From: a virus
Taxonomy: Duplodnaviria > Heunggongvirae > Uroviricota > Caudoviricetes
DNA length: 64,000 nucleotides
Strand: one strand, 5' to 3'
IMG/VR virus record: IMGVR_UViG_3300042691_014730
Span: 20,856 to 84,855 of that record
In this document: positions 24,344-62,714 of the stretch, piece after piece
Numbering within the stretch: the first letter of the stretch is position 1
Layout: each line of letters begins with the position of its first letter
Program-made: the position numbers and the translations under genes
Notes under the pieces: model-generated
The model's database searches: none
Seen by the model: the letters and a program-made list of their open reading frames with translations, nothing else
Told to the model about the DNA's origin: nothing

Positions 24344-24344
24344 A

Positions 24345-24740
24345 ATGAAAGAATGGTTACAAGCATCAACAATTAGTCTATTTGCAGTATTCGCTCCTAT
24401 TAAAGCAATTATTATAACTGTTGGGTTTTTAATTGTTATGGATTGTATTACTGGTATTTTTGCAGCAATGAAGAGAGGTGAGAAAATTTCAAGTGCTGCA
24501 TTGAGAAGAACTGTAACTAAAGCATTCGTATATCAATCTGCGGTAATTACCGGGTTTTTGGTAGAAGTCTACTTGATTGATAAAGCATTTCCTATTAATA
24601 AAGTAGTTGCTGGACTAATAGGTGTTGTTGAATTTAAATCTATATTAGAAAATCTAAACACTATTCACGGTGAAAACCTATTTAAATCTATTATTGAAAA
24701 GCTAGGAAGCATCAATGATAAACTTAATAAAAAAGACTAG
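24345..24740 (+). CDS. putative holin (small protein with at least two TM helices)
   Basis: 131 aa. Hydrophobic helices LFAVFAPIKAIIITVGFLIVMDCITGIF and AFVYQSAVITGFLVEVYL with a charged C-terminus. Last gene of the late operon. Confidence 0.4.
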   Translation: MKEWLQASTISLFAVFAPIKAIIITVGFLIVMDCITGIFAAMKRGEKISSAALRRTVTKAFVYQSAVITGFLVEVYLIDKAFPINKVVAGLIGVVEFKSILENLNTIHGENLFKSIIEKLGSINDKLNKKD

Positions 24741-41543: not shown

Positions 41544-42755
41544 TTAATGAAAGTCAGTATTATCTTTATCCAAATAAGCCTCAGAAATCCATTTTAATGA
41601 CTTTCTAGAGTTAGGACAAGATGGGTTATTATAATCTACTACAGATTTAATCACAATACCTTCTCGTATCTTTTGTGACGGACAATATACTGAATCACCT
41701 TTAGTAAGTTCGTACGCTTGTTCTTTATTAAAAGGTCCAGAGTATAAAGTAGGAACGATATCAAATCCTCGTTCTTTAGCGTACTCTTGTACCTCTAGTG
41801 GGTTTAACCATCTAGTAGAACCGTCTTCATTTAAAATCTTTACATCAAATAATACGAAGTGATGTTCGTTTTTAAATCCGTAATCATAGTTCTTTTGAAT
41901 GCCATGACCTATTAACTCTCCAAATATAGTTTCGTTTGGTTTAATCTTTTCATTAGCTTTTACTTTTTTAAAAACAGCACCGTAAACATCTTCTCCATAG
42001 AATCCAGTATATCCAACTCTGTTGGTTAATTCAACGTTATTAGAACCATAACAAAATTCGTATTTAGGTAATAGTCCTAGTGTATTCTTAATCGATCTTA
42101 AAAACATATTAAGACATGACAACAGAATACTTTTTCTTTCATTAGGTCTAGTTTTTAATAGTTTTAAAGCTGATAGTATTTCCTTAATAGAAGGAACTAC
42201 AGTAGGTAAGTAAGAACAACGTGCGTTACTACCATGTAACTTCTCTTGTATTACTACAATCTCACCTTCTTCGAATAAGTTAGGGAACCATTTAATGTTC
42301 TCAAGTCCGTTGAACTTATGGAACAATGGATTCTCTAGTGGTTTATTTCTAGAAGTCTTTACTGAAACAGAAAACGATGGAGCAGGAGGTTCATACTTAA
42401 CTATTCCTAGTTTCTCTGAAACGTCGTCTTCTTCGTTAATGTTTGATATATTAATTAAGTCTTTAACTTCGTCTAAGTTAATTAACATTCCCTGAGAAGG
42501 GAAGTTTCTGATTCGTATTTGTTTAACTCTGGACTTATGTAGTTTGATTTTACTTCCTTCTGGGAAGAGTTTAGACTCTAGTGAAGGAGGTAGAACTGAA
42601 TCAATAGGAACGTATAATACTGAGTCTCCTACTTTATACTTGTCTTTCTGAATAACTACTTGGAAACCATAAACTGTCGCTACCTCTAGTTTCTCCGCAT
42701 TAAAGTGAGGAGTGATGTTAATGATTTTAGTTAAAGGTACTTTAAATAGTGACAT
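41544..42755 (-). CDS. Rnl2-like RNA ligase (nucleotidyltransferase superfamily)
   Basis: Motif I EKLHGSN resembles Rnl2 KIHGTN. GGAGGG RBS. Gene has its own promoter. Confidence 0.5.
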   Translation of the reverse strand: MSLFKVPLTKIINITPHFNAEKLEVATVYGFQVVIQKDKYKVGDSVLYVPIDSVLPPSLESKLFPEGSKIKLHKSRVKQIRIRNFPSQGMLINLDEVKDLINISNINEEDDVSEKLGIVKYEPPAPSFSVSVKTSRNKPLENPLFHKFNGLENIKWFPNLFEEGEIVVIQEKLHGSNARCSYLPTVVPSIKEILSALKLLKTRPNERKSILLSCLNMFLRSIKNTLGLLPKYEFCYGSNNVELTNRVGYTGFYGEDVYGAVFKKVKANEKIKPNETIFGELIGHGIQKNYDYGFKNEHHFVLFDVKILNEDGSTRWLNPLEVQEYAKERGFDIVPTLYSGPFNKEQAYELTKGDSVYCPSQKIREGIVIKSVVDYNNPSCPNSRKSLKWISEAYLDKDNTDFH

Positions 42756-42866
42756 ATCCCTCCAGATATAAAAGAGTCAGGTAGCTAATCAGATACTGTC
42801 CGAAATGACTTTACTAGCATTTTGGTTCGAATCCATAACTAACAGTCGTGACCTGAACTCTAATTG

Positions 42867-42896
42867 ACTATATCACGTTTTAACGATTTTGTCAAG
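42867..42896 (-). promoter_or_regulatory. sigma70-like promoter TTGACA-N18-TATAGT
   Basis: Reverse complement reads TTGACAaaatcgttaaaacgtgaTATAGT. Confidence 0.6.
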
Positions 42897-42923
42897 CATT
42901 ATTTTTATCTAGTAAGTGTTATA

Positions 42924-43340
42924 TTAAAAATTTATGCTAATTGCATGTGAAGTTATTCCAAGCGATATAATATTTTCTAGTTTAAGCTCATAATTTTCAT
43001 TTTTATATAATGACATTTTAAAATTAGCCCCTAACACTGGTGTTATACCATAAACAGATGGAGGCATAATGTCCAATTCTTTAAATTCTTTAAAATTTGT
43101 ATTATATCCACCAAACACAAAATCAACATCGTCAGTAATTTTGGTAGATGTTACGGCACCAGTTATTTCACCGCACGCTGAGTCTCTACCTTTTAAAATT
43201 CCTGCTTTAAATTCTTCATCGCCGACCATACCTATAACGTATTCGTTGTGAATAGTTCCGTAATTATTGACAGTATTACAATAAGGCAAGCTGGGTGCAA
43301 GATAATGATTAGTTATACCGCCATAAATTATAGTTATCAT
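42924..43340 (-). CDS. hypothetical protein
   Basis: 138 aa. Confidence 0.3.
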   Translation of the reverse strand: MITIIYGGITNHYLAPSLPYCNTVNNYGTIHNEYVIGMVGDEEFKAGILKGRDSACGEITGAVTSTKITDDVDFVFGGYNTNFKEFKELDIMPPSVYGITPVLGANFKMSLYKNENYELKLENIISLGITSHAISINF

Positions 43341-43816
43341 ACTTTAATATAAACTACTATTTCGTTTTCACCAATAACTTCATTTATAATCTTTTCAATA
43401 ATATTCCAATCTCCACCACCTAACCCTGCTCCGATCTTAGGAATAGCTACTGTCTTACCACGATCTAAATATTTCTCTTTAAGTTTAATAAAGCAATCTT
43501 GTATTGCTTCATAGTCAACATACTGTTTTCCATCATACCCATAATTCTCTTGTGTGAAACAGTTTACTATTGTACGGTTTGGTGCTACTTTAATCGGTTG
43601 TATCATTCCTAATAATATTCCTTCTCCAAATCCCATTGACTTATAGTGTTCACATAATCCGTGATAACTACCTTTCACGATTGGATATCTTTCAGTTATT
43701 GTTTTAGCTAATCCTGAGCCAAACTTACTCTGACAGTTTACTCCATGAGCTATAATCTCACAGTCTGTATTAAATAGATCACCTTGTACGTATTTCAACA
43801 TAATCATAACCTCCAA
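43337..43816 (-). CDS. macro domain protein (ADP-ribose binding or processing)
   Basis: VQGDLFNTDCEIIAHGVNCQSKFGSGLAKTI and IPKIGAGLGGGDW match the macro domain GDIT / hhVNAAN / GxGGV and PxIGxGxxGG motifs. Confidence 0.65.
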   Translation of the reverse strand: MEVMIMLKYVQGDLFNTDCEIIAHGVNCQSKFGSGLAKTITERYPIVKGSYHGLCEHYKSMGFGEGILLGMIQPIKVAPNRTIVNCFTQENYGYDGKQYVDYEAIQDCFIKLKEKYLDRGKTVAIPKIGAGLGGGDWNIIEKIINEVIGENEIVVYIKV

Positions 43817-43961
43817 AACTATTTTCTACTTGTTTTAATTGAAATCCAAACCTAGTTAATATTTCTGCTAGTGGTTGAGATGGATTGTATATCCTTCCAT
43901 TCTGGATACTAGCATATAATAGCTCTAGTACTTCTTCCTTTGTAATTTGTTCTGTTTTCAT
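43779..43961 (-). CDS. hypothetical protein
   Basis: 60 aa. Confidence 0.3.
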   Translation of the reverse strand: MKTEQITKEEVLELLYASIQNGRIYNPSQPLAEILTRFGFQLKQVENSFGGYDYVEIRTR

Positions 43962-44854
43962 TAAAAATCTCCATAATTGACTTGCAGTGTTCTTATATTT
44001 TTATTTCTAAGCATCTTTACTACTTGATCTCTGTCATCTAGTGCGAACTTAATATTGTATTTAGGTAAGATTTCATAATCTAGCAGTATACTCTTCACTA
44101 AATCGTCTCTTCTAAAATCTCCTCTGCTTCTCATTACTAATTCATCAAAGGGTATGTTATTATTTTGTAACCAAGTAGTTGTTAATGTTCTATAATCATC
44201 TGGTCTTCCAGAACAAAGTACTATTTTAGTTCCTTTTTCTTTATAAGTTCTCAGTATATCAACGATATCCTCATAAACCAAGTCATTTATCATATCGTCA
44301 AAGAATCCTTTCCAGTTTTTCTTACCTTCACCGTGTACATGATGTAATCTTTGATCTATATTAGCGATTGTACCGTCGATATCACAGTATATTGCATCTG
44401 GTTTGACTTTTTCGCTGTATTTCTCCGTTAAAACGTTGTCTGCTTCGTCCTCAGTAATGTATTCATACTTACTGAAGAACGTGTTTAAAGCGTTTATGGC
44501 GTGTTTAGACGATGTTATCGTAGGATGGTTTAACCTACATTTCATTCTACTGAAACAAACGCTTAAAGGAACAATAATGTTGTGAATACTTGTAGTATAA
44601 CCTAGTTCTTTTGCTGGCTTTAGGTATCGTTCACGTTGTTGTTTACTAAAATTCATTCGGTCTACTACAATATCGTCTTGTCGTTCTAAAGCTTCTTTAA
44701 ATAATTTTAAATGACCTTCCTTGCCTTGATCGTCTTGCGATATTCTAGTATATCCTATGTAACTTTTACTAAGAGATGACTTACCTGATCCAGGAGGTCC
44801 AACTAATAACACTATGTTTTTCATTCCTTGTCCTCCCATTCTATTAGAAAACAA
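43961..44854 (-). CDS. pnk: polynucleotide kinase / 3'-phosphatase (T4 Pnk-like)
   Basis: N-terminal P-loop LLVGPPGSGKSSL. C-terminal HAD phosphatase motif IYCDIDGTIA (DxDGT). Confidence 0.65.
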   Translation of the reverse strand: MFSNRMGGQGMKNIVLLVGPPGSGKSSLSKSYIGYTRISQDDQGKEGHLKLFKEALERQDDIVVDRMNFSKQQRERYLKPAKELGYTTSIHNIIVPLSVCFSRMKCRLNHPTITSSKHAINALNTFFSKYEYITEDEADNVLTEKYSEKVKPDAIYCDIDGTIANIDQRLHHVHGEGKKNWKGFFDDMINDLVYEDIVDILRTYKEKGTKIVLCSGRPDDYRTLTTTWLQNNNIPFDELVMRSRGDFRRDDLVKSILLDYEILPKYNIKFALDDRDQVVKMLRNKNIRTLQVNYGDF

Positions 44855-48894: not shown

Positions 48895-50391
48895 TTAAGC
48901 TGAAATTTTTTGCTCTTTTAATGTTTTTCGTATATTAGACAAAGTATCGTTGAATAAAAAGTTACCATTAATAAAAATAGGTTTCAACAAATCTTCTTTA
49001 GTGTTAGTTAGTGTTGTATCATCTGAGTATTCTAAAATCCCTTGATCATTTTTAAACACTTTTACTTTACCCTTAGCCGAGTTCTTGGTTCCATCATCTG
49101 TTTTAGGTGCTTTAAATATAGCCTTTTCTGTTCCATTAATTGTAACAGATGTTGCCTTCATTGCAAATCCTAATGTATCTCTAGTGATGTATTGATAAGT
49201 ATAAGAACCAATTCCTAGTACAACGTTAGTTGAAGCGAATCCTTTTTGTTTTAATCTTTCACAAATTTCCTTGCATCTAGTAATTGTGATTGAATCTCCG
49301 TAGATAGCTCCTACTTTTGGATTTAGTAGTTTGAATCCTTGCGGCGTTACTGATCCTCCGAATGTTTCGTAAAGTAATTCAATAACACCTTTGCTCTCAG
49401 ATGAACCAGGTTTAGCTTCAGGGTCACCACAAAGAATATTTACTGGATCACCGCTATCTGGTCGGATAACTACTTTATCTAAAGAGCCTTCTCCTCCGTT
49501 ACGAGCAAGGATAGATTCTTTTAATGAAGGAATAATATTTGTCATTACATTCCATAAATCCCATGTATCTGAAACAATAGATACAATTCCTGTTGGATAT
49601 AAGTCTTCAATAAATCTTCTATATGTTTCTCTTTCATCTTCATATCCTCCAGCACACATACAACTGTGTTCTGAAGCGGGAACCGAGCATCCTACTAGTT
49701 CTTTAGTAACGTCTGCGCCATAATACTGTTCAGCGTATGAGATGGCTGGTAATGTGTCAGTTCCTACAAACGAAAGTAAATGACCTACTCCTGATCTAGC
49801 TGAATCTTCTGGACCACTTTGACCTCTCATAGAAAAGTCGTGTCCTTGGAATTCTACTCCTGCTGTAGAGCCTGTTGTTTGTAAAGCATAATCATCTAAT
49901 ATACTTCTGTATGTGTGAGCAATGCTTGCCGTTGTAGAAGGCTTCCATAGTAGGGAAGATAGAATCGTTTCAAGATAATTAGTTACCCAAAAGAATTCAG
50001 GCTTTGTGTTTTCGATAGTCATCATTGGAACACGATATGGTACTAGAGTACCTTCCTTCAGAGACTTAACTTCAATAGGTAGAAATCCCAAATCGTGTAA
50101 ATCTTCAATGTGTTTTGTTTCAACGTTCGGATTAAATAAATAAGCACTTACTTGTCTTTTGTACTCAATAATTACTTCTTCTTTTGAACGATTGAAGAAC
50201 TGTTTATTAAACAAATCATTAACTTCTTTTAATGCCCCTTGAATACCAAAACAAACTACGTTCTTAATTTCTGGAGCATGCTTTCCAGATCGAGGAATCC
50301 ATGTACTGTAAACGTTTGTAGTGCCTTTTGGGTACTGAATTCTGTGACTAAGTTTATATCCATCAGCTGCTAATGTTGCAATTAAATTCAT
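48895..50391 (-). CDS. nadV: nicotinamide phosphoribosyltransferase (NadV-type NAMPT)
   Basis: N-terminal LAADGYKLSHRIQYP resembles the NAMPT DSYKxxH signature. About 500 aa. Own consensus promoter. Confidence 0.65.
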   Translation of the reverse strand: MNLIATLAADGYKLSHRIQYPKGTTNVYSTWIPRSGKHAPEIKNVVCFGIQGALKEVNDLFNKQFFNRSKEEVIIEYKRQVSAYLFNPNVETKHIEDLHDLGFLPIEVKSLKEGTLVPYRVPMMTIENTKPEFFWVTNYLETILSSLLWKPSTTASIAHTYRSILDDYALQTTGSTAGVEFQGHDFSMRGQSGPEDSARSGVGHLLSFVGTDTLPAISYAEQYYGADVTKELVGCSVPASEHSCMCAGGYEDERETYRRFIEDLYPTGIVSIVSDTWDLWNVMTNIIPSLKESILARNGGEGSLDKVVIRPDSGDPVNILCGDPEAKPGSSESKGVIELLYETFGGSVTPQGFKLLNPKVGAIYGDSITITRCKEICERLKQKGFASTNVVLGIGSYTYQYITRDTLGFAMKATSVTINGTEKAIFKAPKTDDGTKNSAKGKVKVFKNDQGILEYSDDTTLTNTKEDLLKPIFINGNFLFNDTLSNIRKTLKEQKISA

Positions 50392-50417
50392 ATTTATATT
50401 CCCTTTGTTTTATAATT

Positions 50418-50446
50418 ACTATATCATACTTTTGTCATTTAGTCAA
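50418..50446 (-). promoter_or_regulatory. sigma70-like promoter TTGACT-N17-TATAGT
   Basis: + strand reads actatatcatacttttgtcatttagtcaa; the reverse complement gives the -35 and -10. Confidence 0.6.
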
Positions 50447-50638
50447 GTCTTTTCCGAAGATTTTTTTGTTCATTTTTTGTATAAATGGAATACCGAAAGC
50501 AACGATAGCACATAGTACATGTATTGTAATAGCTAATGTTCTAAAATCATTTTGGCTGATAGGTGCAAATATTAATAAACACCCAAAGAAAAATACACTA
50601 GATGCTATTGTAATTCCTAGTTTTAAATCACTTAACAT
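50435..50638 (-). CDS. small two-TM membrane protein
   Basis: 67 aa. Confidence 0.35.
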   Translation of the reverse strand: MLSDLKLGITIASSVFFFGCLLIFAPISQNDFRTLAITIHVLCAIVAFGIPFIQKMNKKIFGKDLTK

Positions 50639-50868
50639 TTAAACTCCTTAGTAATAGTTTTCCTAAGTGTAATATTACAGCCAATAAAGTAAGTCCTCCT
50701 AGAATTGGAAGTTCATTTGAACGATGACTAAATAGGTATGGTAGTAAAAAACCAAAGTAAACAATTGCTGAAGCAATGATAATAAATAACTTAATAATAA
50801 CTCCTTTGTTAATAACGGCGACAGCTCGCCACTCTCACCACTTAAGCGGGGGTGACCCTGCACAGTAC

Positions 50869-51723
50869 TTATTTAATATTAATAAACGGAATAGCGTTGC
50901 TTCCTGTCATGGTCGGTAACTTACCATCCCATCTTTGGATGGCTTCATATTGAATAAGTTCAGATGTTAATGTTTTTAACTTTAAAGCGTTTGATTTAGA
51001 CTCAGCTTCAGCAATAGCGATCATTGATTTAGCTCTACCTTCTGCTTCAGCGATTTGTTTCTTAGCTTCTGCCTCTGCTTCTCTTAACTCATTCTCTCTT
51101 TGTTGAGCACGTTGTGTAGCTTCGATCTTAGAGTTCAACGCATTAACTACGTTGCTAGGTAATCGAATAGAACCGATTAAATAAACCTTTTCAATTAAGA
51201 TTCCGTTACTCTTTAAGTTAGTTCTTACAATCTCTTCTACCTTAGAAAATAACTCTGCTTTACCTGATCCATATACTGATTCAACATTCATCGTAGAAGC
51301 TACAGTATTTAGAGCGTCTCTAATAGCATTCTTTACTACAATAGATTTAATCTCATCAATGCCCTTTCTATACTTTTGAAATAACTTACTAATTTTTTCA
51401 GCGTCAACACTAAAAGTTACACCAACGTCAATGTTACAAGAAAGACCTTCTTGTGTTTGAAATGTAAAAGATTCATCTGTTTCCGAATCCTCTTGTTCAT
51501 CAGCTGTATATACTTTTGTTTGTTGAAAAGTAGGGAAGATGTATAGTTCTTCATTAATACCAATGAAGTATCTACCTACTCCAAGTACTTCGTGATCTAC
51601 CCCTTTGTCTTTTCCTAGTAAATAAATCTTGACTCCGACGTTTCCTGCTGGAACTTTAGAACATGATGTTGTTAGTGTTACTCCTAACAGAATAACAAAA
51701 GCTAACGTAATAAATCTAATCAT
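50869..51723 (-). CDS. SPFH (band 7 / stomatin-prohibitin-like) lipoprotein
   Basis: Lipobox LTTSCSK. Ala/Glu-rich EAEAEAKKQIAEAEGRAKS...IQRWDGKLP segment typical of SPFH or HflK/C. Confidence 0.6.
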   Translation of the reverse strand: MIRFITLAFVILLGVTLTTSCSKVPAGNVGVKIYLLGKDKGVDHEVLGVGRYFIGINEELYIFPTFQQTKVYTADEQEDSETDESFTFQTQEGLSCNIDVGVTFSVDAEKISKLFQKYRKGIDEIKSIVVKNAIRDALNTVASTMNVESVYGSGKAELFSKVEEIVRTNLKSNGILIEKVYLIGSIRLPSNVVNALNSKIEATQRAQQRENELREAEAEAKKQIAEAEGRAKSMIAIAEAESKSNALKLKTLTSELIQYEAIQRWDGKLPTMTGSNAIPFINIK

Positions 51724-52477
51724 TAATTTCTCCTTTATAAGTAAAGATTCGGTTAATACCTGAATCTCTTAATGTTTGAATACCTTTAGTAAATAATCCA
51801 TGTGATACATACAAATCAACATTCGATACTTTGTGTTTATTTAATAATTGTTCAGCGACTAATTTAAATGTTCCTCCTCCATCACATAAGTCGTCAACAA
51901 TTAAACATCTCTTATTTGTTAAATCTTCTTTGGATAATAAATCCATTCCAATAATGTTACCAGTTAATTGATCTCTTGTTTTTTCGAAATAGACTTTAGT
52001 ATGGTTTGGTAAATAGTATCTTAAACTTGCTCCTTTGTCTGGGTATACTATAATATCTGCATCTGTTTTAATGAACGTGTGTTTTATTATTTCGTTAGGC
52101 AATACATTCACAAACCTTTTTATACCGTGGTTATTTGAATGTACATCTACACTCGATACTTTATTAAAGTTAAAAGAATTAATTATGTTAGAGAAAGCTT
52201 GAAGACCAAACGTTGTATTATTACTAACCTCTTTATCTTGTCTGGCATAAGGTAAATAAGGAATAAACAGTTCACCTCGTTTTTCTTCAATACTACCGAT
52301 CAATAATCGTAACTGACAAACGTTTATTAATTCCGCTTCGTTTTCAAACTGCCATCTTATTTCGTTATAATATGAGTTTCTGATTTTAGAATAGACTTCA
52401 TCTGGAAGTTTCCATACTTGACTACATTTATCTGGGAACATAGTTGGTTTGACTAGGTATCCATTAATATATATCAT
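51716..52477 (-). CDS. phosphoribosyltransferase-domain protein, probably PRPP synthetase-like
   Basis: PRPP-binding loop CLIVDDLCDGGGTF. Directly upstream of SPFH and two genes from NAMPT. Exact family uncertain. Confidence 0.45.
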   Translation of the reverse strand: MIYINGYLVKPTMFPDKCSQVWKLPDEVYSKIRNSYYNEIRWQFENEAELINVCQLRLLIGSIEEKRGELFIPYLPYARQDKEVSNNTTFGLQAFSNIINSFNFNKVSSVDVHSNNHGIKRFVNVLPNEIIKHTFIKTDADIIVYPDKGASLRYYLPNHTKVYFEKTRDQLTGNIIGMDLLSKEDLTNKRCLIVDDLCDGGGTFKLVAEQLLNKHKVSNVDLYVSHGLFTKGIQTLRDSGINRIFTYKGEIND

Positions 52478-52722: not shown

Positions 52723-53094
52723 CTAACTCCTTTCGAGTATTCGAGTTTTGTTTATATTAATAGCGTCTTCAGTAGGTTTATAATCATTATTGAATTCCAT
52801 GGGGAATTGACAGAAGATACTACTATCTCTAAAGCTAGGATTATATCCTCTTCTTAACATTTCAGAAACTAATTGTTCGTATCTGTTTTTTAGATAAATC
52901 ATTTTATCATAAAAGAATTTTACATGTCCTTTACCTAGAGTGTACTCATTGGGTATTTCAGTTAAACTAAAAGGAGATGTTAATCTATTCAATGACTTCT
53001 TAAGATTATTTGGAAGTCTAGTTATTTCTCTATACTCAGCTATAAGGTGTTTAGTACTAAGAGTTTCGACTGGAACAACGTTTATTCTAGTCAT
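52723..53094 (-). CDS. denV: pyrimidine dimer DNA glycosylase / AP lyase (T4 endonuclease V-like)
   Basis: MTRINVVPVETLSTKHLIAEYREI and GKGHVKFFYDKMIYLKNRYEQLVSEMLRRGYNP closely match T4 DenV [24 protein letters not shown] and [33 protein letters not shown]. Start set at MTRIN (53094), because the tabled start lies in the promoter -35. Confidence 0.75.
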   Translation of the reverse strand: MTRINVVPVETLSTKHLIAEYREITRLPNNLKKSLNRLTSPFSLTEIPNEYTLGKGHVKFFYDKMIYLKNRYEQLVSEMLRRGYNPSFRDSSIFCQFPMEFNNDYKPTEDAININKTRILERS

Positions 53095-53104
53095 AGACCT
53101 CCTT

Positions 53105-53133
53105 ATTATATCATATATTTTATAATTTGTCAA
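53105..53133 (-). promoter_or_regulatory. perfect sigma70 consensus promoter TTGACA-N17-TATAAT
   Basis: Reverse complement reads gcTTGACAaattataaaatatatgaTATAATaaggaggtctATG. The -10 sits only about 11 nt from the denV ATG. Confidence 0.65.
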
Positions 53134-53864: not shown

Positions 53865-54440
53865 TTATCTCCTTAGTTGATATTCAAATCTTAGTTTATG
53901 TTTCTGTTTAATTACTTTAGCTTTACCTTCTTTTATAAGTTCTTGAAACTTAATTGCAGCTTTAGTATATTCTCCGTTCAGTTTAGCATATAGTTGTCTT
54001 ATGTGTACTTTCTTTCCATCGTCCAACAATAGTACTCTAGGATTAGGAGTTTTTTCTGCTCCAGTAAATACGAAGTTACTGGCTTTATATATTGTTCCAT
54101 TGTGTCCGACATTAGGATCGGTGTACGATAATACATACGGAGGAGTATCTAGTTCTTTAAGAAGTCTTAATGTCTTCCCTAAGAAGAAAGACTCTGTATT
54201 CTTTTGTGTATTATCTATTAAACAGAAGCGTCTTAATTCTATATACTTATCATTATCAACATTAGTACCCATTGGTTGTCCGTATATTGCAACACCGACT
54301 AGAGTGTTATCGTGTGTTCTTAACGTAAAGACGTGCTTTTGTTTTAGCGATCTATATGATTTAGAATAGTGCCATTGAACAATGAAGTCCATGATCTCCA
54401 CACTTAAAGCTTCCTCTTCAACTTTATATATATCTTTCAT
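53865..54440 (-). CDS. hypothetical protein
   Basis: 191 aa. Confidence 0.35.
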   Translation of the reverse strand: MKDIYKVEEEALSVEIMDFIVQWHYSKSYRSLKQKHVFTLRTHDNTLVGVAIYGQPMGTNVDNDKYIELRRFCLIDNTQKNTESFFLGKTLRLLKELDTPPYVLSYTDPNVGHNGTIYKASNFVFTGAEKTPNPRVLLLDDGKKVHIRQLYAKLNGEYTKAAIKFQELIKEGKAKVIKQKHKLRFEYQLRR

Positions 54441-54642
54441 CTACTATTCTCCATTTCTTTAATTGTTCTTTTATACTTAACAATTTAGTAAATTCAAATC
54501 CTCCGTCACACATTAGTTTATTATTTTCTATATATAGATAATCATGTTTTAACCAGTCAGAAGCTTGTACTTTGTGTCCTTGTTCCATCTTTTCTAAAGC
54601 TTCAATGAATGTCATCCACTTTATTTTTTTATTATTTTTCAT
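54424..54642 (-). CDS. hypothetical protein
   Basis: 72 aa. Confidence 0.3.
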   Translation of the reverse strand: MKNNKKIKWMTFIEALEKMEQGHKVQASDWLKHDYLYIENNKLMCDGGFEFTKLLSIKEQLKKWRIVDERYI

Positions 54643-55752: not shown

Positions 55753-55990
55753 TACTCCCTATTTTATATATTGAATCTTTATATGAAGCAAAGTCATGCT
55801 TAATTAAATGCTGTTCATGTAAAGAGTTACGAAACTCACCTGCAATACTAGTAAAGTACCACAATGATCCAATCTTCTCTATTGTTCCTAAATAAAATTC
55901 ATAATCTAATCGATTAAATGAACCTTTATTATACTGATACATATATAAACTATTATTTTCTAAATTAACCATATCTAAAATTCTTTTCAT
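55742..55990 (-). CDS. small paralog-family protein (member 4)
   Basis: LENNSLYMY ... IYKIGSIDE. Confidence 0.35.
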   Translation of the reverse strand: MKRILDMVNLENNSLYMYQYNKGSFNRLDYEFYLGTIEKIGSLWYFTSIAGEFRNSLHEQHLIKHDFASYKDSIYKIGSIDE

Positions 55991-56181
55991 TATATTACCT
56001 TTTTAAAGATTTTACGAAAGTCACTTAATAGTTTTGAGTTACCCTTACTGTTTTTTCCTAAGTAGTCGTAAAAAATAATACTTTCTGAAACTAGAACTAT
56101 AATAACTAAACAGTCATGGTAGTCTGAATTTAACATATCAGAAGAATTACTTTGAAATATTTGTCCTATTTGAATATCCAT
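55990..56181 (-). CDS. hypothetical protein
   Basis: 63 aa. Confidence 0.3.
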   Translation of the reverse strand: MDIQIGQIFQSNSSDMLNSDYHDCLVIIVLVSESIIFYDYLGKNSKGNSKLLSDFRKIFKKVI

Positions 56182-56340
56182 TATACAACCTTTGTAAAGA
56201 GTTCATTGAATCTTTTAATATCTTTTAAAAAAATTCCTTGACCACCTAAGTATTTGTATTTAATAAATGGCTCTATACTTAATACTATAACTAAGTTATT
56301 TGTATAAGAAGAAGCTATTAAATCTGTGGCTTGATAAATA

Positions 56341-56739
56341 CTATCTGTAGTTATATTCATACATTACCTTTTTATAATAATTGTTATCGTATGGATTTGA
56401 AACATACGATCCACCTTTGTTACCTCTATTATAACATATAATAAAAGTATTGTTTGTTTTGTGTTTACAAGTATTACGAAAACTATTTAATAATTGAATC
56501 CCTCTATGTACATTAGTACAAGGGTCTAATAATTGTTCATGTGTTTCGATTACAAAAACAGGGCGTATTTGCATTAGTCCAACTTCCCCTACACTACCTA
56601 TAGTCTGGGAATTGAAACGTGACTCAACCGATATTACAGCGTTTACTAAGTTTTTATCAATGTTATATTTACTGGAGTACAAGTCTATACAAGAAGATAG
56701 AATCCAGTAGTTAATCAGACTTACCATAGACTGCATCAT
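56341..56739 (-). CDS. lytic transglycosylase (SLT domain), probable endolysin, with hydrophobic N-terminus
   Basis: AVISVESRFNSQTIGSVGEVGLMQI matches the SLT E-S...GLMQ catalytic signature. N-terminus VSLINYWILSSCI could be a signal-anchor. Confidence 0.6.
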   Translation of the reverse strand: MMQSMVSLINYWILSSCIDLYSSKYNIDKNLVNAVISVESRFNSQTIGSVGEVGLMQIRPVFVIETHEQLLDPCTNVHRGIQLLNSFRNTCKHKTNNTFIICYNRGNKGGSYVSNPYDNNYYKKVMYEYNYR

Positions 56740-57703: not shown

Positions 57704-57979
57704 TTATACTACCTCATCTAATTCTAGAGGGTGTGCCATTCTTATTTCATTAGTATTACTTATCGGTCTTAAGTATACAATATGAATTGAACTAGGGGCA
57801 CCACTAAACCAATTAGGTTTCTTAGTAACTACAAATATTTCTCCTAACTCACACATATCATATATAGATTTTATTCCTTTTTTAAAAGTTACTGTATTAT
57901 ATGTATATTCATCATGATTATCAAAGTCCTTTACTGTGCGATTCAGTATTACCAAGTCATTAGTTTTGAATAGATTCAT
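57704..57979 (-). CDS. hypothetical protein
   Basis: 91 aa. Confidence 0.3.
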   Translation of the reverse strand: MNLFKTNDLVILNRTVKDFDNHDEYTYNTVTFKKGIKSIYDMCELGEIFVVTKKPNWFSGAPSSIHIVYLRPISNTNEIRMAHPLELDEVV

Positions 57980-58523
57980 ATTGAATTCCTTTTATAACTT
58001 GACATACCTTATTCAATGTTTCTTTATTTACATCTGTACATAGATACTTACAAACATCTGTTAAGTCTTGTAATAAATAATCTTCTAAATAAAATTGTAT
58101 TTCATTATTTAAAATCTTTAACAATTTTCTTGTGTCTCTTTTAATAAGATAATACTGATTAATTTTTTTATCCTGTGGTAACCAATCGTATAGTAATATT
58201 AAAGCCCCAGCATGAGCCAATATTTCTTCGTGTAATACATCAACTTCTTCTTTTAATTTATTTAAAGTTATTCTATTTAATCTATTAAACCTACCAGTCG
58301 AATGTATTATTTCATGAACTAAAGTAATTTGTGCCCAATATCTATTTAATAACATTTCATTATTTAATGCTATAATATCTAAAGGTATTAGATATTTACC
58401 ATATGCATTGATCTCATTTGTAATTATAATTTTAGGGAGATTTATAGTATTTAATGCTAGAGTATTGTTCATTGCTTTATTAAGCTCGACGATTGATTGA
58501 TCCATTTGTTCCCCTTTGTTCAT
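57960..58523 (-). CDS. HExxH zinc-metallopeptidase-like protein
   Basis: ITLVHEIIHSTGRFNRL. Overlaps the ATP-grasp gene (translational coupling). Confidence 0.4.
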   Translation of the reverse strand: MNKGEQMDQSIVELNKAMNNTLALNTINLPKIIITNEINAYGKYLIPLDIIALNNEMLLNRYWAQITLVHEIIHSTGRFNRLNRITLNKLKEEVDVLHEEILAHAGALILLYDWLPQDKKINQYYLIKRDTRKLLKILNNEIQFYLEDYLLQDLTDVCKYLCTDVNKETLNKVCQVIKGIQYESIQN

Positions 58524-59274
58524 TGATGTATTGAACTATATTGTTTACCCATATATCTAAATTCAAAGAGTTAAGTCCAGGACTTGAATTAACTTCTATT
58601 ACATAGAATCGTTTCTTATCTCTGTCGAATATAATATCGACACCACCGAATAGTAACCCTAATCCTTGTACTGCTTTAATACACATTTGTTGTGCATTAT
58701 AATTACAAGTAGATATTTCTGGATTACATTTTCTGAACTGACAGTTATGTGATTTATATATTTTAACATTAGAATCATTTGGTATCTTCTCGTAAACACC
58801 TAATATCTTACCATTAAATACATGAACTCTATACTCTTTCTTATTACTAATAGGTCTAGTAATGTATAGATCATTAGGTCTAAGTTGGTTATCATATCTA
58901 ACCACCATGTCTCTACCTCTAACATAGAAGTAACCAGATGAATCTTTAAATCTTTCAATATCAAATGTATTTCTATCGCCTTCAATTAAATCGAAATACT
59001 GGGGAGTTCTAACACCTTCTATTAACTTAAGACTCTTTAACATATAATGTTTGTTAGATGCTTTCTTAACAGCTAGTCTATCATTTAATGTTAATGTCTG
59101 ACCACTATCAGGAGTTCTACTTTCTCCCCAACGAATTGTAACGGCTGATTGTTTTGGTGTCATGTATTCTCTAACTCTTCTAACTCTACTGAATAGTCTA
59201 GAGTTTTTAAGTTTTAAATATAATGACTTACCTGTCTTACAGGATTTGTTTGAATAACAAAAATTAATAAACAT
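58480..59274 (-). CDS. ATP-grasp ligase (RimK / glutathionylspermidine-synthase-like)
   Basis: C-terminal FYVIEVNSSPGL is the characteristic ATP-grasp E-x-N...PG motif. Product about 260 aa. Confidence 0.55.
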   Translation of the reverse strand: MFINFCYSNKSCKTGKSLYLKLKNSRLFSRVRRVREYMTPKQSAVTIRWGESRTPDSGQTLTLNDRLAVKKASNKHYMLKSLKLIEGVRTPQYFDLIEGDRNTFDIERFKDSSGYFYVRGRDMVVRYDNQLRPNDLYITRPISNKKEYRVHVFNGKILGVYEKIPNDSNVKIYKSHNCQFRKCNPEISTCNYNAQQMCIKAVQGLGLLFGGVDIIFDRDKKRFYVIEVNSSPGLNSLNLDIWVNNIVQYINEQRGTNGSINRRA

Positions 59275-59452
59275 AACAATCTCCTATTTTTTTATATCTA
59301 TTTGAATGTGGACCAAGCGTAGATGAGTAATGATCGAATCCATTACAAGCCGCAGTACTCCAATAAGTATAATAATTATAGTATGCTCCTGATTCCCTTT
59401 TCTCAAAAAGAACTAGTCCTTTAAATACTATATCAAAATATAATTCAATCAT
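59264..59452 (-). CDS. hypothetical protein
   Basis: 62 aa. Confidence 0.3.
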   Translation of the reverse strand: MIELYFDIVFKGLVLFEKRESGAYYNYYTYWSTAACNGFDHYSSTLGPHSNRYKKIGDCYVY

Positions 59453-59684
59453 TTTTTACCTCACATATAAGTTTCAATAACTCTCCTTTAACAAACCTAG
59501 AGTATCTCCTGTCGTGTATTTCAAAATCAGATGTTCCAACATTACCCAAATAATAATACTGTATAATATCAGCCATAGGGTCAACACTTAAAACAATCAC
59601 TAATCTATTTAGATTATTAGCAGAAAAGAAATTACCATATTGGTTACCTTTTGTTGTTAAGTATAGACAGTTTGGTTTATACAT
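59445..59684 (-). CDS. hypothetical protein
   Basis: 79 aa. Confidence 0.3.
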   Translation of the reverse strand: MYKPNCLYLTTKGNQYGNFFSANNLNRLVIVLSVDPMADIIQYYYLGNVGTSDFEIHDRRYSRFVKGELLKLICEVKND

Positions 59685-59685
59685 A

Positions 59686-59934
59686 TTATCCTCTTTTTGA
59701 TTTTAACTGACCATCTTTTGTTAAAGTTATATTATCTTTAATAAGTTGAAGTACTGTACCAATTGCTTCATATTCATCTGAATTAAAAAAGTCCCACTGT
59801 TCTTCTGATATAATACCAGTTTCTTGAAAATCATACATATTATCAGCTAATGTGTACATATCTTCAATTGCTTTATCTAATGCTTCCAATAACTTATCAT
59901 TTGATAATGTAACCTTTTCATTATTTATTTTCAT
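59686..59934 (-). CDS. hypothetical acidic protein
   Basis: 82 aa. Confidence 0.3.
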   Translation of the reverse strand: MKINNEKVTLSNDKLLEALDKAIEDMYTLADNMYDFQETGIISEEQWDFFNSDEYEAIGTVLQLIKDNITLTKDGQLKSKRG

Positions 59935-59943
59935 ATGTTCTCC

Positions 59944-61044
59944 TTAGTATTGAATGCTATAAGGTTGACTATCACTCATGTAAGCATCATATAATAGTTG
60001 CATCTTTGTCTCATAATCTAAACTATTTAATACGTTTTGTTCGTCACTAGATAGTTTAAGAAAGTATTCATTTAATGTAGATGCTATTTTATTAATTTCT
60101 AGTATATCAACTTTAGTTTTCTTAACATCAGAGTATTTAGAATCCGAGGCTTCTTCGTTATTATACAACCAGTTATATGATTGACTATGGTTTTCTTCCC
60201 ATCTGTTTCTGCTAGAGGATAACCTCCGTGACCTACTTGATGTAGTCCAATTAGTTGAAATTGTTCTAGTAATGTCAGTGACTGAAATAGGTTCTCCAGT
60301 AATTGCATCTACTCTTAGTAACTTGTTATCATACAGTGGGAAACATCTAGGCTTTTTCCAATTAAGTTTATCACAAGTATTCTTAATAATATCATCACTT
60401 GTACAGATAACCATGCCACCTAACTCTTCTACTTGAGCCAAGAATAAAGGGGCATTATTTTTAAATACATCTAATATACTTCTACCATCTGATTGTTTAG
60501 ACAATACAGCTACTCCCCAATAACCTTGTAAAGCATCTGTTGTTTCCTGAATCTTAGCTTGATTATTCTGAACATCATTCTTAAGATATTCATTTAAGAT
60601 TGTTTCAGAGTCACAAGTTGAAATAACATTTGTTAATGTATGTGAGTTATTAATAATACCATTGTGAATTAAAGCAGTATTACCTATAATAAAAGGGTGT
60701 ACATTTTCAAATGTCCTAGCACAAGTTGCGAATCTTGTATGATAGATAATAGATTTAACATCTTCAAAATTCACAACACCAGTTGTAGAATATTCAGTTG
60801 GTTCTAATTGTGTAGGAACTTGTTCTTTAAGAACACCCTGATATTTAGCTACTTCAGTTAATGGTTTAACAAATGCTTTCTCTACATTTAGAAATCTTTC
60901 AGAGAACATATTACCTTGTCCATCAATTGCGGCATAACCTAATCCATGACTATCTGATTTAGTCATATCAGCTTTAGATGCAACCATAAATTTTCTAGCG
61001 TTCAATCCGTTCTTAATACCAAACATCACCATAACTTTACACAT
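59944..61044 (-). CDS. class II (Ntn) glutamine amidotransferase-like protein (YafJ/GATase_4-like)
   Basis: Starts MCK (Cys2 nucleophile position). DSHGLGYAAIDGQGNMF and HTRFATCARTFENVHPFII resemble the NGDGFG and H.R.AT.G....N.HPF motifs. Confidence 0.5.
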   Translation of the reverse strand: MCKVMVMFGIKNGLNARKFMVASKADMTKSDSHGLGYAAIDGQGNMFSERFLNVEKAFVKPLTEVAKYQGVLKEQVPTQLEPTEYSTTGVVNFEDVKSIIYHTRFATCARTFENVHPFIIGNTALIHNGIINNSHTLTNVISTCDSETILNEYLKNDVQNNQAKIQETTDALQGYWGVAVLSKQSDGRSILDVFKNNAPLFLAQVEELGGMVICTSDDIIKNTCDKLNWKKPRCFPLYDNKLLRVDAITGEPISVTDITRTISTNWTTSSRSRRLSSSRNRWEENHSQSYNWLYNNEEASDSKYSDVKKTKVDILEINKIASTLNEYFLKLSSDEQNVLNSLDYETKMQLLYDAYMSDSQPYSIQY

Positions 61045-61053
61045 ACTTACTCC

Positions 61054-62517
61054 TTATGCAAATGCATTAATATTGTTATTAATATAATCTAAAGATGTCT
61101 GAGGAATATTTTCAATATAATTAGGAATCGTTTCAACTTTTCTTGGAGCAGATTCTAATTTAGTTGATTTGTTTACAATAGGTAATAAGAAGTTAATCCA
61201 GTTACTAATCTCAATACAATCAACAGTTCCTTTATGTACTCTAATCTCTAATGTTTTATGACGAGCATAAGACATAGGATTAATAACTAAATATCTTTCT
61301 GATCTACCTCTATGTCCATCTTTATATGAATATTTTTCAATATCAGCAAATTCAGTTGGCTTACAATATGTATTGCTTCTACGTTCAATAGGTTGTGAAT
61401 CAATTAAAAACTTTTGCATCTTAACTAAATTATGAAACGCAGTAGCAACATCTCTATTTCTCATATCTAAATGAACGTGAAGACCACAAGAACTATTAAC
61501 TGAACATTTAGCATCTTGTAATGCAACTCCTAATTGTTTAAGAATATCTTCTCTCTTAGATTCAGGAAGCAACACTCTAATTTCATGTGTATAATTATAT
61601 CCATCTGAAGTTCTTAATGAACCATCGGAAGTAACATTTGTCCACTTTTGGAGCTTATGTTTAATGAGAATATTTTTAAGCTCAGTAACGTCTGACTTAG
61701 AAATTAATTCAATTTCAATACCAATAAAGTTTTCACTATTGAAAGGAACTTTCTCGTCATTAATATAGTTGGATTGAATGTGGTTATATAATTTCAGATA
61801 CTCTTCTGGTTTAGAATGTACCTTACCTAACAAGGTAACTGAACCAAATTTATTTTTAATAACTTTCTCAACTAATTTCTTAGAAGCACGTTCCTCTCGG
61901 ATTAAAGAATTTAATGCGACAAAAGCTTTTAACTTTGCATTCTTTAAATCTTTTTTAATAATATCCTTTCCTGCTTCATTGACTGAAATAGTTGGCATCG
62001 GAATACTGATCTCTTTCTTAACTCCATTAACAATTCGACTAGCTTGTACAAAGATTTCAGCGTTTAATATGTTACTAATCTTAGCTCTGTTTTCTCTGAT
62101 CTTAGTAGATAAAGTAGACTCCTTATCTTTAGAACCTTTAAGCTTTAACTTCTGCTGTTGTCTATCTAAGTCTTCTAGCTTTTTTGTATCTCTTAATAAA
62201 GTAAATAACATTGTATTTTTATTATCACTCTTATTAACAATTCTAATCTTAAAGTCTTTAGGATAAATAACTTTTTCATACCTACTAAACACTAGATTAT
62301 CTTTTAGTACAATGAACTGAGTACCGACTGGAACTTTAATTTTCTTAGAGTCAACAGTAATTATTACATCTTCGTATGTTTCGATTGTACAATACTTATC
62401 ACTTAAACTATACTCACCAATGTATTTAACTTCTTTGTTTAAAAAGAATGTACCTAGTTTGTTGTCTCTGTCCTTTGCAATTTTGTAAATACTTCCTAAT
62501 TCTAATTTTGTTGACAT
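61054..62517 (-). CDS. amidoligase-like (glutamine synthetase / GCS2-fold) protein with a novel N-terminal domain
   Basis: C-terminal half contains GIEIELIS (G-x-E-x-E), CGLHVHLDM (H-x-H) and RYLVINP...EIRVHKG, consistent with the Amidoligase_2 / carboxylate-amine ligase fold. Recalled from memory, not searched. Confidence 0.4.
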   Translation of the reverse strand: MSTKLELGSIYKIAKDRDNKLGTFFLNKEVKYIGEYSLSDKYCTIETYEDVIITVDSKKIKVPVGTQFIVLKDNLVFSRYEKVIYPKDFKIRIVNKSDNKNTMLFTLLRDTKKLEDLDRQQQKLKLKGSKDKESTLSTKIRENRAKISNILNAEIFVQASRIVNGVKKEISIPMPTISVNEAGKDIIKKDLKNAKLKAFVALNSLIREERASKKLVEKVIKNKFGSVTLLGKVHSKPEEYLKLYNHIQSNYINDEKVPFNSENFIGIEIELISKSDVTELKNILIKHKLQKWTNVTSDGSLRTSDGYNYTHEIRVLLPESKREDILKQLGVALQDAKCSVNSSCGLHVHLDMRNRDVATAFHNLVKMQKFLIDSQPIERRSNTYCKPTEFADIEKYSYKDGHRGRSERYLVINPMSYARHKTLEIRVHKGTVDCIEISNWINFLLPIVNKSTKLESAPRKVETIPNYIENIPQTSLDYINNNINAFA

Positions 62518-62519
62518 AA

Positions 62520-62714
62520 TTAATTTCCTCCTATAGATTGTTGTTTTTCCATTAGTTTAGTTTTAATATTTTGATTTAAATTTTCATAAACTTTTTCTAA
62601 TCTTGATTGCCACAATAATGCTTGTTCTAAATTTAATTCTTTAGGACATCTATTGTATGTTTTCCAACCTTTATTATCTAAATTATACATTATGTAATAT
62701 TTAGTTTCGTCCAT
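62520..62714 (-). CDS. hypothetical protein
   Basis: 64 aa. Confidence 0.3.
   Translation of the reverse strand: MDETKYYIMYNLDNKGWKTYNRCPKELNLEQALLWQSRLEKVYENLNQNIKTKLMEKQQSIGGN

Follow-up and report, generated by a model that had tools for sequence, protein, structure and literature searches.

The genes for an amidoligase, a class II glutamine amidotransferase (GATase), and a RimK-like ATP-grasp ligase, which occupy 58480-62517 on the minus strand of the 64,000-nt stretch of DNA analyzed here (the window), probably constitute a pared-down version, with three enzymes, of the amidoligase/GATase/ATP-grasp module known from phages, with the adjacent HExxH zincin gene being independent of it and the intervening small ORFs being fillers. 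The source is an uncultured ~85 kb lytic-type phage, in which the module lies in a long co-directional array of early/middle genes. As the original prediction held, four co-oriented ORFs are present where proposed on the minus strand along with three small ORFs, the latter lying specifically between the GATase and ATP-grasp genes. Searches against Pfam and PHROGs, together with homolog-built profiles, recover the proposed fold or family for all four larger products; the motifs that had been named (GxExE, HxH, Cys2, E-x-N..P, and HExxH) are conserved in homologs, and the catalytic residues are intact in the amidoligase, GATase, ATP-grasp, and zincin alike.

Enzymatic components

The amidoligase (61054..62517, minus strand) is a 487-aa long-form Amidoligase_2 enzyme, whose match to the eponymous Pfam family (4.1e-15, 56.8 bits against a cutoff of 22) places it in the amidoligase/glutamine synthetase (GS) fold, as had been proposed. 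Its catalytic GS/GCS2-fold domain spans residues ~258-487 and displays the motifs G266-x-E268-x-E270 and H347-x-H349, which are conserved across the homolog alignment. This domain is preceded by a beta-rich and helical extension of ~255 residues (61753..62517, minus strand) of orphan sequence, which is poorly conserved in the same alignment and yields a structure model of moderate confidence with a disordered segment at residues 79-103; a phmmer search with it against 1.84 billion representatives retrieved its own cluster only.

The GATase gene (59944..61044, minus strand) begins 9 nt past the amidoligase stop, with an AGGAG ribosome-binding site 5 nt ahead of its Met-Cys start, and codes for a 366-aa class II (Ntn, Cys2) GATase-like protein, the C-terminal ~100 aa of which form an extension. 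This protein matches Pfam GATase_6 (3.5e-6, 27.5 bits against a cutoff of 27) as well as the glmS/purF N-terminal domains, and a profile built from its homologs retrieves the GlmS glutaminase domain (1.5e-12) and PurF (1.7e-8) from the PDB, which bears out the anticipated Ntn-GATase placement. Residues C2, H102, R104, T107, H127-N128-G129, D145, and E147 are invariant across these homologs. The possibility that it is an AsnB or GlmS fragment was rejected: the protein falls in a separate clade, whose members invariably accompany an amidoligase.

The third enzyme (58480..59274, minus strand; 264 aa) is a RimK-family ATP-grasp ligase, as indicated by matches to Pfam RimK (4.2e-9, 36.7 bits against a cutoff of 21) and phrog_2599 (6.6e-33), and by the retrieval of RimK from the PDB (5e-13) with a homolog-built profile. 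The ATP-grasp motif E227-x-N229..P232 is present and conserved, and K75, R119, E147, R149, H151, K163, D213, E227, N229, and P232 are invariant among the homologs. RimK itself is the ribosomal protein S6 L-glutamate ligase. With it and the other alpha-L-glutamate ligases MptN and CofF, the window protein shares the ATP-grasp fold, the signature residues of the RimK family, and its best PDB and NCBIfam matches; however, it falls in a distinct phage clade (phrog_2599), and all three NCBIfam models match it far below their equivalog cutoffs (e.g., MptN 49 bits vs 350, RimK 23 vs 331).

These affinities bear on the reading of the genes as unrelated housekeeping or auxiliary nitrogen-metabolism enzymes, namely a GS-like protein and a glutaminase that would enhance nitrogen assimilation by the host. 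A role in nitrogen metabolism has indeed been speculated for phage amidoligase, GATase, and gamma-glutamyl cyclotransferase (GGCT) genes (eLife 2024). Yet, the amidoligase is just 10-14% identical to GS or GCL, with the match limited to the catalytic core, no module protein reaches any NCBIfam equivalog, and the GATase, as noted above, is no fragment of a metabolic enzyme; accordingly, we give this reading very little credence.

Gene linkage and the known phage module

In 48 of the 72 non-redundant loci recovered, the amidoligase gene is directly followed by that for the GATase, the two genes being separated by a median of 15 nt. The ligase invariably precedes the GATase, marking a tightly coupled pair whose linkage is far beyond chance; this runs counter to the possibility, raised at the outset, of housekeeping enzymes lacking conserved linkage, and answers the question of whether homologous clusters occur in other phages. 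The commonest third partner is the ATP-grasp, found within 6 kb downstream in 13/51 loci. No amidoligase-GATase fusion that would prove physical coupling was found; given that fusing the genes in this order would leave the N-terminal Cys buried, the absence of such fusions is uninformative. The order amidoligase, GATase, small ORFs, ATP-grasp is retained in relatives with 34-63% amidoligase identity, and the same gene order recurs in phiEco32-like KBNP1711, UFV-P2/LUZ24-like, and PA11/O4-like phages.

The combination itself is hence not new: it is the widespread phage module of amidoligase, GAT-II, ATP-grasp, COOH-NH2 ligase, and GGCT predicted by comparative genomics (Iyer, Abhiman, Burroughs, Aravind 2009, Mol Biosyst 5:1636), which is known from LUZ24-like (UFV-P2, tf, PaP3), phiEco32-like (KBNP1711), and PA11/TC6/O4-like phages and often bears the annotation 'putative peptidoglycan modification module'. 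In agreement with its earlier description as essentially uncharacterized, no biochemical study of the module was found in the searchable literature. The window version resembles it in the succession on one strand of Amidoligase_2, a directly adjoining Cys1 class II GATase, and a RimK-like ATP-grasp, in its early/replication-proximal site, and in the interspersed small ORFs. It differs in that the window ORFs scanned include no COOH-NH2_lig (PF14395), short amidoligase paralog, or GGCT, in the orphan extension of the amidoligase (255 residues), in the presence of an ArdC-type protease domain at the usual GGCT position, and in showing just ~23-32% sequence identity to the cultured-phage versions.

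The three small ORFs, which code for 82 aa (59686-59934), 79 aa (59445-59684), and 62 aa (59264-59452) on the minus strand, match no family in Pfam or PHROGs. Their number and identity differ among relatives: the 82- and 79-aa ORFs are retained only in a relative with 63% identity, where five small ORFs occupy this site, and in loci L006 and L067 the GATase directly adjoins the ATP-grasp. Moreover, the 79-aa ORF belongs to a three-copy family of the early region, with paralogs at 56181-56360 and 55990-56181. These ORFs are lineage-specific fillers.

A further small ORF of 64 aa (62520..62714, minus strand) sits 3 nt upstream of the amidoligase, and its product ends in GGN, which is what might be expected if the PafA/Dop-fold amidoligase ligated it to target proteins following deamidation by the GATase, in the manner of Pup. 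However, the ORF is retained only in the closest relative, where the product ends in GGK, and none of the ~40 other upstream ORFs codes for a conserved GG[QEN] end. The GGK terminus and the lack of a conserved C-terminal motif elsewhere argue that the 64-aa protein is no Pup-like tag, making such tagging a most improbable function for the module.

The adjacent zincin

The fourth gene (57960..58523, minus strand) codes for a 187-aa stand-alone ArdC-type gluzincin metalloprotease domain. It matches Pfam MPTase-PolyVal below the family cutoff (4.9e-4) and phrog_7245, annotated 'anti-restriction protein' (3.1e-8), and a homolog-built profile aligns with residues 168-268 of ArdC (6I89/6SNA; 2.8e-10). 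Its H70-E71-x-x-H74 motif and E99-E100, conserved in homologs, correspond to H201/E202/H205 and E228-E229 of ArdC from plasmid R388, such that the two have in common the C-terminal gluzincin domain and the EE 'glutamate helix' ligands. ArdC, however, has 297 aa, and its N-terminal ssDNA-binding ArdcN domain is absent from the zincin and from the rest of the window. As the anti-restriction phenotype of ArdC is independent of its protease activity and no substrate is known for it (PMC7213743), its function is not transferable to the zincin.

Several features could tie the zincin to the module. Its gene overlaps the 3' end of the ATP-grasp gene by 44 nt, as it does to a similar extent in the 63% relative; short versions (155-187 aa) lie within ~3.5 kb of module genes in five divergent members of the lineage, four of which carry it downstream of the ATP-grasp; and its slot is taken by GGCT in KBNP1711 and UFV-P2 and by a short amidoligase in L007/L019. 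The polyglutamate tails that RimK writes are trimmed by the protease RimB, and the zincin might likewise serve as a peptidase for processing or trimming, in place of the canonical module's GGCT, in a four-gene pathway. A RimK-plus-protease precedent is outlined in PMC11957791. Against this, of the 42 other viral loci with zincin homologs recovered in a reverse search, 41 have none of the three module genes (amidoligase, GATase, ATP-grasp) within 10 kb; those homologs are full-length ArdC-like proteins. The linkage is confined to a single syntenic ~85 kb phage lineage, in which synteny extends equally to the Mom, DenV-like, and SLT genes, and is no stronger than theirs. Further, the zincin is missing from L006, L007, L019, L022, L067, and all cultured-phage versions seen, and that of L011 adjoins no ATP-grasp. 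The four-gene pathway originally envisaged thus stands with respect to the amidoligase/GATase/ATP-grasp linkage, with the HExxH protein being no conserved member; we consider its participation rather unlikely. Instead, the zincin is probably an ArdC-type protease domain that is a neighbor only, and would most likely act as an independent host-takeover or counter-defense gene amid a region rich in such genes.

Genomic neighborhood

The surroundings of the module feature genes of counter-defense and host-takeover types, viz., Tad2-like, Mom-like, NAMPT with PRPP synthetase, RNA ligase with PNK, and a macro domain. The Mom-family gene (53865-54440; Pfam Mom 2.4e-28) raises the prospect that the module hypermodifies phage DNA by extending or amidating a Mom-like adenine adduct, or by decorating 5-hydroxymethyl-pyrimidines. 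In the window, as well as in L004, L010, L014, L016, and L022, the module has Mom on its downstream side, just ~650 nt from a short amidoligase in L022; genes for a dNMP kinase and a dUTPase also occur; and amidoligase and amidotransferase genes are co-associated with thymidine-hypermodification genes in metagenomic clusters (Lee et al. 2021). On the other hand, the loci with Mom all come from one syntenic phage group, Mom is missing from roughly half of the loci that contain an ATP-grasp and from the cultured-phage versions, ~3.5 kb with about a dozen small ORFs separate it from the module in the window, and the window ORFs scanned include no dUMP/dCMP hydroxymethylase, 5-HMUDK, aGPT-Pplase, or TET/JBP. 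We therefore regard hypermodification as improbable. Of the candidate substrates put to such tests, neither a DNA base, nor NAD (see below), nor a protein tagged in Pup-like fashion gained support.

The NAMPT and PRPP synthetase genes, 5-9 kb away in the window, along with the Tad2-like gene, could point to regeneration of a metabolite depleted by host immunity, e.g., through glutamine-dependent amidation of a nicotinate-type precursor feeding the phage NAMPT pathway. Consistent with this, the GATase and ATP-grasp of L007 are separated by an inserted NMNAT / PRPP-synthetase-like / NAMPT block, and NAMPT lies 1 kb from an amidoligase in L077. However, NAMPT is not nearby in most module-bearing phages, and in the reverse test the amidoligase profile matched at none of 80 viral NAMPT loci, 77 of which have PRPP synthetase beside NAMPT; a GATase or ATP-grasp occurs at just two of the 80, one being from the window's own lineage. 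Such a role is highly improbable.

Proposed biochemistry of the module

By homology, the amidoligase is predicted to phosphorylate a carboxylate with ATP and couple it with an amine. The carboxylate would most likely be the gamma-carboxyl of glutamate or of a terminal glutamyl residue, by analogy with all characterized members of the GS/GCL/PafA fold. The Cys1 Ntn GATase may work with it as a second subunit, for which we favor the release of ammonia from glutamine for glutamine-dependent amidation, the alternative being hydrolysis of a gamma-glutamyl amide, as by EgtC after EgtA; the two roles are inseparable by sequence because they involve the same glutamine-binding residues. Two-part ligase/amidohydrolase systems of the same fold include PafA/Dop in pupylation, EgtA/EgtC in ergothioneine synthesis, and PuuA/PuuD. 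The window differs from the first in having no Pup-like tag and from the others in having no ergothioneine or polyamine genes near the module. The peptidoglycan amidotransferase MurT/GatD is a functional analog, whose likeness to the module is only mechanistic since the fold of MurT is that of Mur ligases and GatD belongs to the class I GATases.

The RimK-like ligase, in turn, would add an amino acid, probably glutamate, to the terminal carboxylate of the same acceptor. Ranking the acceptors by judgment, we tentatively place a small metabolite or peptide first, followed by a protein as a less likely candidate and a cell-wall precursor as a still less likely one, with a nucleic-acid base being unlikely and an NAD-type cofactor very unlikely. 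Taken together, the steps proposed for the amidoligase, GATase, and RimK-like ligase would yield a glutamyl/glutaminyl (iso)peptide of short length, as a free product or built on a carboxylate-bearing acceptor.

Domain composition of the amidoligase cluster

The cluster (57960-62517) is a tightly packed array of four substantial co-directional genes on the minus strand, with neighbors separated by as much as 9 nt or overlapping by as much as 44 nt. Three small filler ORFs on the same strand (82, 79, and 62 aa) all lie between the GATase and ATP-grasp genes, in agreement with the layout described in the original prediction. Motifs and profiles alike validate the enzyme assignments made there, placing the product of the first gene in the amidoligase/GS fold and that of the second in the Ntn-GATase fold. 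The first gene (61054-62517, minus strand; 487 aa) codes for a GS/GCS2-fold Amidoligase_2 protein (Pfam 4.1e-15; PHROGs "amidoligase") with its metal- and ATP-binding residues intact. Its N-terminal extension of 255 residues is an orphan, having homologs only in its own cluster among 1.84 billion representatives, and a search for homology between this N-terminus and the many small early ORFs found none.

The GATase (59944-61044, minus strand; 366 aa) is barely above the cutoff in Pfam (GATase_6, 3.5e-6) and is labeled "glutamine amidotransferase / GlmS-like" in PHROGs; its family profile recovers the GlmS glutaminase domain (1.5e-12) and PurF (1.7e-8) from the PDB. The alignment shows C2, R104, N128-G129, and D145 to be kept across 28-56 homologs; these correspond to the nucleophile, oxyanion hole, and glutamine-binding residues of GlmS-type class II enzymes. 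The Met-Cys start is preceded by an AGGAG site and lies 9 nt past the amidoligase stop. A tblastn search with this protein against cultured phages gave no match because it is too divergent.

The ATP-grasp protein (58480-59274, minus strand; 264 aa) likewise bears out its earlier designation as a ligase, scoring above the cutoff for Pfam RimK (4.2e-9), matching RimK structures in the PDB at 5e-13, and retaining the ATP- and Mg-binding residues of its homologs (E147, R149, H151, K163, D213, E227, and N229). In PHROGs it belongs to phrog_2599 ("S6 glutaminyl transferase", 6.6e-33), together with proteins of the phages KBNP1711, O4, PA11, and CVT22. Its NCBIfam bit scores fall far under the equivalog cutoffs for MptN (49 vs 350), rimK_fam (32 vs 143), RimK (23 vs 331), and also CofF; judged by sequence, it is a family-level relative only of the RimK/MptN/CofF alpha-L-glutamate ligases. 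A PADLOC scan found no match to known defense-system proteins, and promoter and terminator counts equaled the shuffled expectation, so that operon boundaries could not be drawn from them.

Conservation of linkage across phages

Loci with an amidoligase homolog were gathered, 90 in all, and searched with HMMs iterated from the window proteins; 78 come from IMG/VR, where an alignment-based scan worked and a single-protein pattern scan with the amidoligase returned nothing. Of the amidoligase genes, 72 are non-redundant and have enough sequence downstream; in 48 of these the GATase gene lies immediately downstream on the same strand, the gap in the adjacent pairs having a median of 15 nt. An ATP-grasp gene follows at a distance of up to 6 kb in 13 of 51. 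Homologous clusters thus occur in other phages, and their true invariant core is the ligase-then-GATase pair. The junction between GATase and ATP-grasp is more fluid: the two genes adjoin directly, with no ORF between them, in two loci (L006 and L067), and the phage locus with the closest (63%-identical) amidoligase has five small ORFs at this point versus three in the window. In a further locus (L007; 10001-16988 of a contig of NCBI GCA_034680565.1) the junction is filled by a four-gene NAD-salvage block, the order being amidoligase, GATase, DUF3307, NMNAT-like, PRPP-synthetase-like, NAMPT, RimK-like, and short amidoligase. Based on these linkage data, we consider amidoligase-GATase-ATP-grasp to be the ancestral unit and the GATase/ATP-grasp junction to be an insertion hot spot. 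One of the fillers of the window (59445-59684) is a paralog of two small ORFs (55990-56181 and 56181-56360; blastp 3e-6 and 2e-5, small database), all three being minus-strand ORFs of ~60-80 aa with a common LVIVLS-type motif.

Fusions of amidoligase and GATase, sought as Rosetta-stone evidence, were absent among 102 amidoligase and 73 GATase ORFs. As the GATase needs its N-terminal Cys free, fusion behind the ligase is precluded, and the ligase-then-GATase order may hence reflect mechanism. A related 88.7 kb phage (L011, 2402-13716) carries the amidoligase-GATase pair twice, plus a short amidoligase, with no ATP-grasp detected. Separately, in Mycobacterium phage Marvin (31627-33967 of locus L215), gp105 and gp106 are both annotated as "glutamine amidotransferase domain protein"; gp106 begins with Met-Cys, and the gp105 homolog of phage Tesla matches the amidoligase model structurally (Foldseek 4.7e-6). 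Marvin gp105-gp106 is probably another instance of the ligase-then-GATase pair in which gp105 carries the wrong annotation; the HMMs built here were too weak to confirm this and detected neither protein.

A reduced version of a predicted phage module

The literature traces this gene set to Iyer et al. 2009 and usually labels it a putative peptidoglycan-modification or superinfection-exclusion module. All three of its central components, namely Amidoligase_2, the adjoining Cys1 class II GATase, and the co-directional RimK-like ATP-grasp, are present in the window. The same amidoligase-GATase-ATP-grasp order is seen in LUZ24-like UFV-P2, in PA11/TC6/O4-like phages, and in phiEco32-like KBNP1711, whose full order is COOH-NH2 ligase, amidoligase, GATase, small ORFs, ATP-grasp, and GGCT. 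The three enzymes are therefore a known, computationally predicted module, the combination is not new, and the peptidase is most likely a neighbor; of the four genes, the original interpretation is right about three.

In the window the module is present in reduced form. The second ligase, COOH-NH2_lig (PF14395), which is present in L006, L134, O4, and KBNP1711 and is a variable component in published module descriptions, was found neither among the window ORFs scanned nor, in the 63% relative, across the upstream 10 kb. There is no match to an AIG2/GGCT gene in the cluster or the flanking ORFs scanned, and the slot downstream of the ATP-grasp that is occupied by GGCT in the known module is held in the window by an ArdC-type zincin. 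A short amidoligase paralog is likewise absent among the window ORFs scanned. The window instance thus shows the minimal three-enzyme form and leaves the kind of system unchanged. As originally stated, such phage systems are essentially uncharacterized by experiment, full-text literature searches having found no biochemical characterization of the module.

Genomic setting and associated genes

The window has a plus-strand structural module up to about 24 kb, followed by a long minus-strand replication/early array, with the strand switch at 24343-24740 and a change in the sign of the GC skew at about 24 kb; there are no tRNA genes in the 64 kb. This tailed phage is without a close cultured relative: its cluster has no nucleotide match among cultured phages, and its DNA polymerase shares 29% identity or less with those of Salinibacter phages. 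A metagenomic contig of 84.9 kb carries the identical amidoligase, and contigs of 81-89 kb carry relatives at 34-63% identity.

Besides the polymerase, the minus-strand array codes for a primase-helicase, exonuclease, dNMP kinase, dUTPase, and RNR, and several further genes, all on the minus strand, are noteworthy. An RNA ligase (phrog_968), a macro domain protein (43337-43816, at the Pfam cutoff), and a polynucleotide kinase (together 41544-44854) look like an RNA-repair/ADP-ribose-handling set typical of counter-defense. A NAMPT (phrog_448, 1e-194), a Band_7/HflK-like protein, and a PRPP-synthetase-like protein are encoded at 48895-52477; the NAMPT-PRPP synthetase pair is consistent with an NAD-reconstitution counter-defense pathway, and no NMNAT was identified in the window. 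These are followed by a DenV-like pyrimidine-dimer DNA glycosylase (52723-53133; PF03013, 2.5e-16), also syntenic in L133, and a Mom-family DNA-modification protein (53865-54440; Pfam Mom 2.4e-28, phrog_1384 4e-41), suggesting that the phage lineage may carry an N6-adenine adduct. The Mom-family gene is syntenic downstream of the module in five other loci (L004, L010, L014, L016, and L022). Directly upstream of it is a 72-aa Tad2-like (Thoeris anti-defense 2) ORF (54424-54642; PF11195 1.1e-5, 26.3 bits vs a cutoff of 25), a candidate immune-signal sponge. An SLT-type lytic transglycosylase domain protein (56341-56739) is encoded in this early-gene array, outside the lysis/structural module; it also occurs near the module in three other loci (L004, L017, and L052) and is weakly relevant to a cell-wall hypothesis.

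The ArdC-type metalloprotease

The HExxH protein (57960-58523, minus strand; 187 aa) is a metallopeptidase-like protein as first described, with weak direct matches (Pfam MPTase-PolyVal 4.9e-4, below cutoff; PHROGs "anti-restriction protein" 3.1e-8). As its single-sequence AlphaFold model had a pLDDT of 43, we relied instead on a four-sequence profile. Its match, at 2.8e-10, is to the metalloprotease domain at the C-terminus of ArdC, an anti-restriction protein of plasmids (6I89/6SNA), with H70/E71/H74/E99-E100 aligned to H201/E202/H205/E228-E229 of ArdC. The gluzincin domain, with HExxH and glutamate helix, is thus present, whereas the N-terminal ssDNA-binding domain of ArdC (ArdcN) is absent, and a profile of that region from 28 full-length viral homologs matches no window ORF. 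In L011, ArdC is split into separate genes for ArdcN (93 aa) and the protease domain (170 aa) ~4 kb apart. The protease activity of R388 ArdC is dispensable for anti-restriction and has no known substrate (PMC7213743).

The main rival to our reading of this gene is that the zincin is a trimming peptidase that replaces GGCT in the pathway. In the ~85 kb phage lineage, five divergent members do carry a short zincin no more than ~3.5 kb from genes of the amidoligase module. It is downstream of the ATP-grasp in four of them, the fifth being L011, which lacks a detected ATP-grasp. However, this linkage does not show shared function because synteny there is just as strong for the Mom, DenV-like, and SLT genes. 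Moreover, of 42 viral loci recovered with a zincin homolog in a reverse search, 41 code for a full-length ArdC-like protein and have none of the three module enzymes (amidoligase, GATase, ATP-grasp) within 10 kb; the sole exception is the window's own lineage. Given that the homologs elsewhere are unlinked and the lineage synteny is uninformative, we regard the trimming role as unlikely and the zincin as probably an independent gene neighboring the module, which sets the ArdC-type protease apart from the pathway to which it was first assigned.

Predicted biochemistry and candidate acceptors

To our knowledge, every characterized enzyme of the GS/GCL/PafA fold phosphorylates the gamma-carboxylate of glutamate and then couples it to an amine. 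Class II Ntn amidotransferases with the residue set found here recognize glutamine or a gamma-glutamyl group, from which they liberate ammonia or the amine, and RimK-family ligases extend a terminal carboxylate with L-glutamate. Combined most simply, these activities would make up a pathway dependent on glutamine and glutamate whose product is a short glutamyl/glutaminyl (iso)peptide, whether unattached or carried by an acceptor. In this reading the ligase-GATase pair would act as a two-subunit amidotransferase, for which obligate adjacency and tight spacing are indirect evidence; alternatively, by analogy, it could be a ligase/hydrolase pair of the EgtA/EgtC type.

Several acceptors were considered. 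A Pup-like tag, in the form of an upstream 64-aa ORF ending in GGN, was rejected as its C-terminus is not conserved: the ortholog ends in GGK, and ~40 other lineages have no conserved GGQ/GGE-type end. The link to NAD salvage prompted by L007 does not generalize, with module genes in only 2 of 80 viral NAMPT loci (GATase or ATP-grasp in those 2, amidoligase profile matches in 0, and a PRPP-synthetase partner in 77).

A DNA base, one of the substrates originally suggested, finds a precedent in metagenomes where amidoligase and amidotransferase genes occur near thymidine-hypermodification genes (Lee et al. 2021). However, the set that defines such clusters (hydroxymethylase or TET/JBP, 5-HMUDK, and aGPT-Pplase; Lee et al. 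2018/2021) was not found near the window amidoligase and GATase: Pfam and PHROGs identified no dUMP hydroxymethylase, TET/JBP, 5-HMUDK kinase, or aGPT-Pplase in the ORFs scanned, which are those of the window; for the ~21 kb of genome beyond it, the relative L004 is the only proxy. The Mom-like gene, 3.5 kb from the module, is missing in about half of the related loci. These observations give no support to DNA as the substrate.

A more speculative proposal, which we hold to be quite improbable, is that the module is a counter-defense or host-takeover device, a post-translational "writer" set aimed at a host immune or translation protein. The RimK-like ligase would then add a glutamate tail, the amidoligase and GATase would cap or amidate it, and the ArdC-type protease could be an eraser or processor in this lineage. 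This proposal fits the location of the module in an island with Tad2-like, Mom-like, NAD-reconstitution, and RNA-repair genes.

The module is among the most widespread tailed-phage enzyme sets still without an assigned product, being carried both by Pseudomonas and E. coli phages that are candidates for therapy and by uncultured lineages such as this one. LUZ24 or phiEco32 would be a better experimental entry than an uncultured phage, and solving the chemistry of the module would provide a function for thousands of phage genes and could expose a new phage-made metabolite or macromolecular modification.
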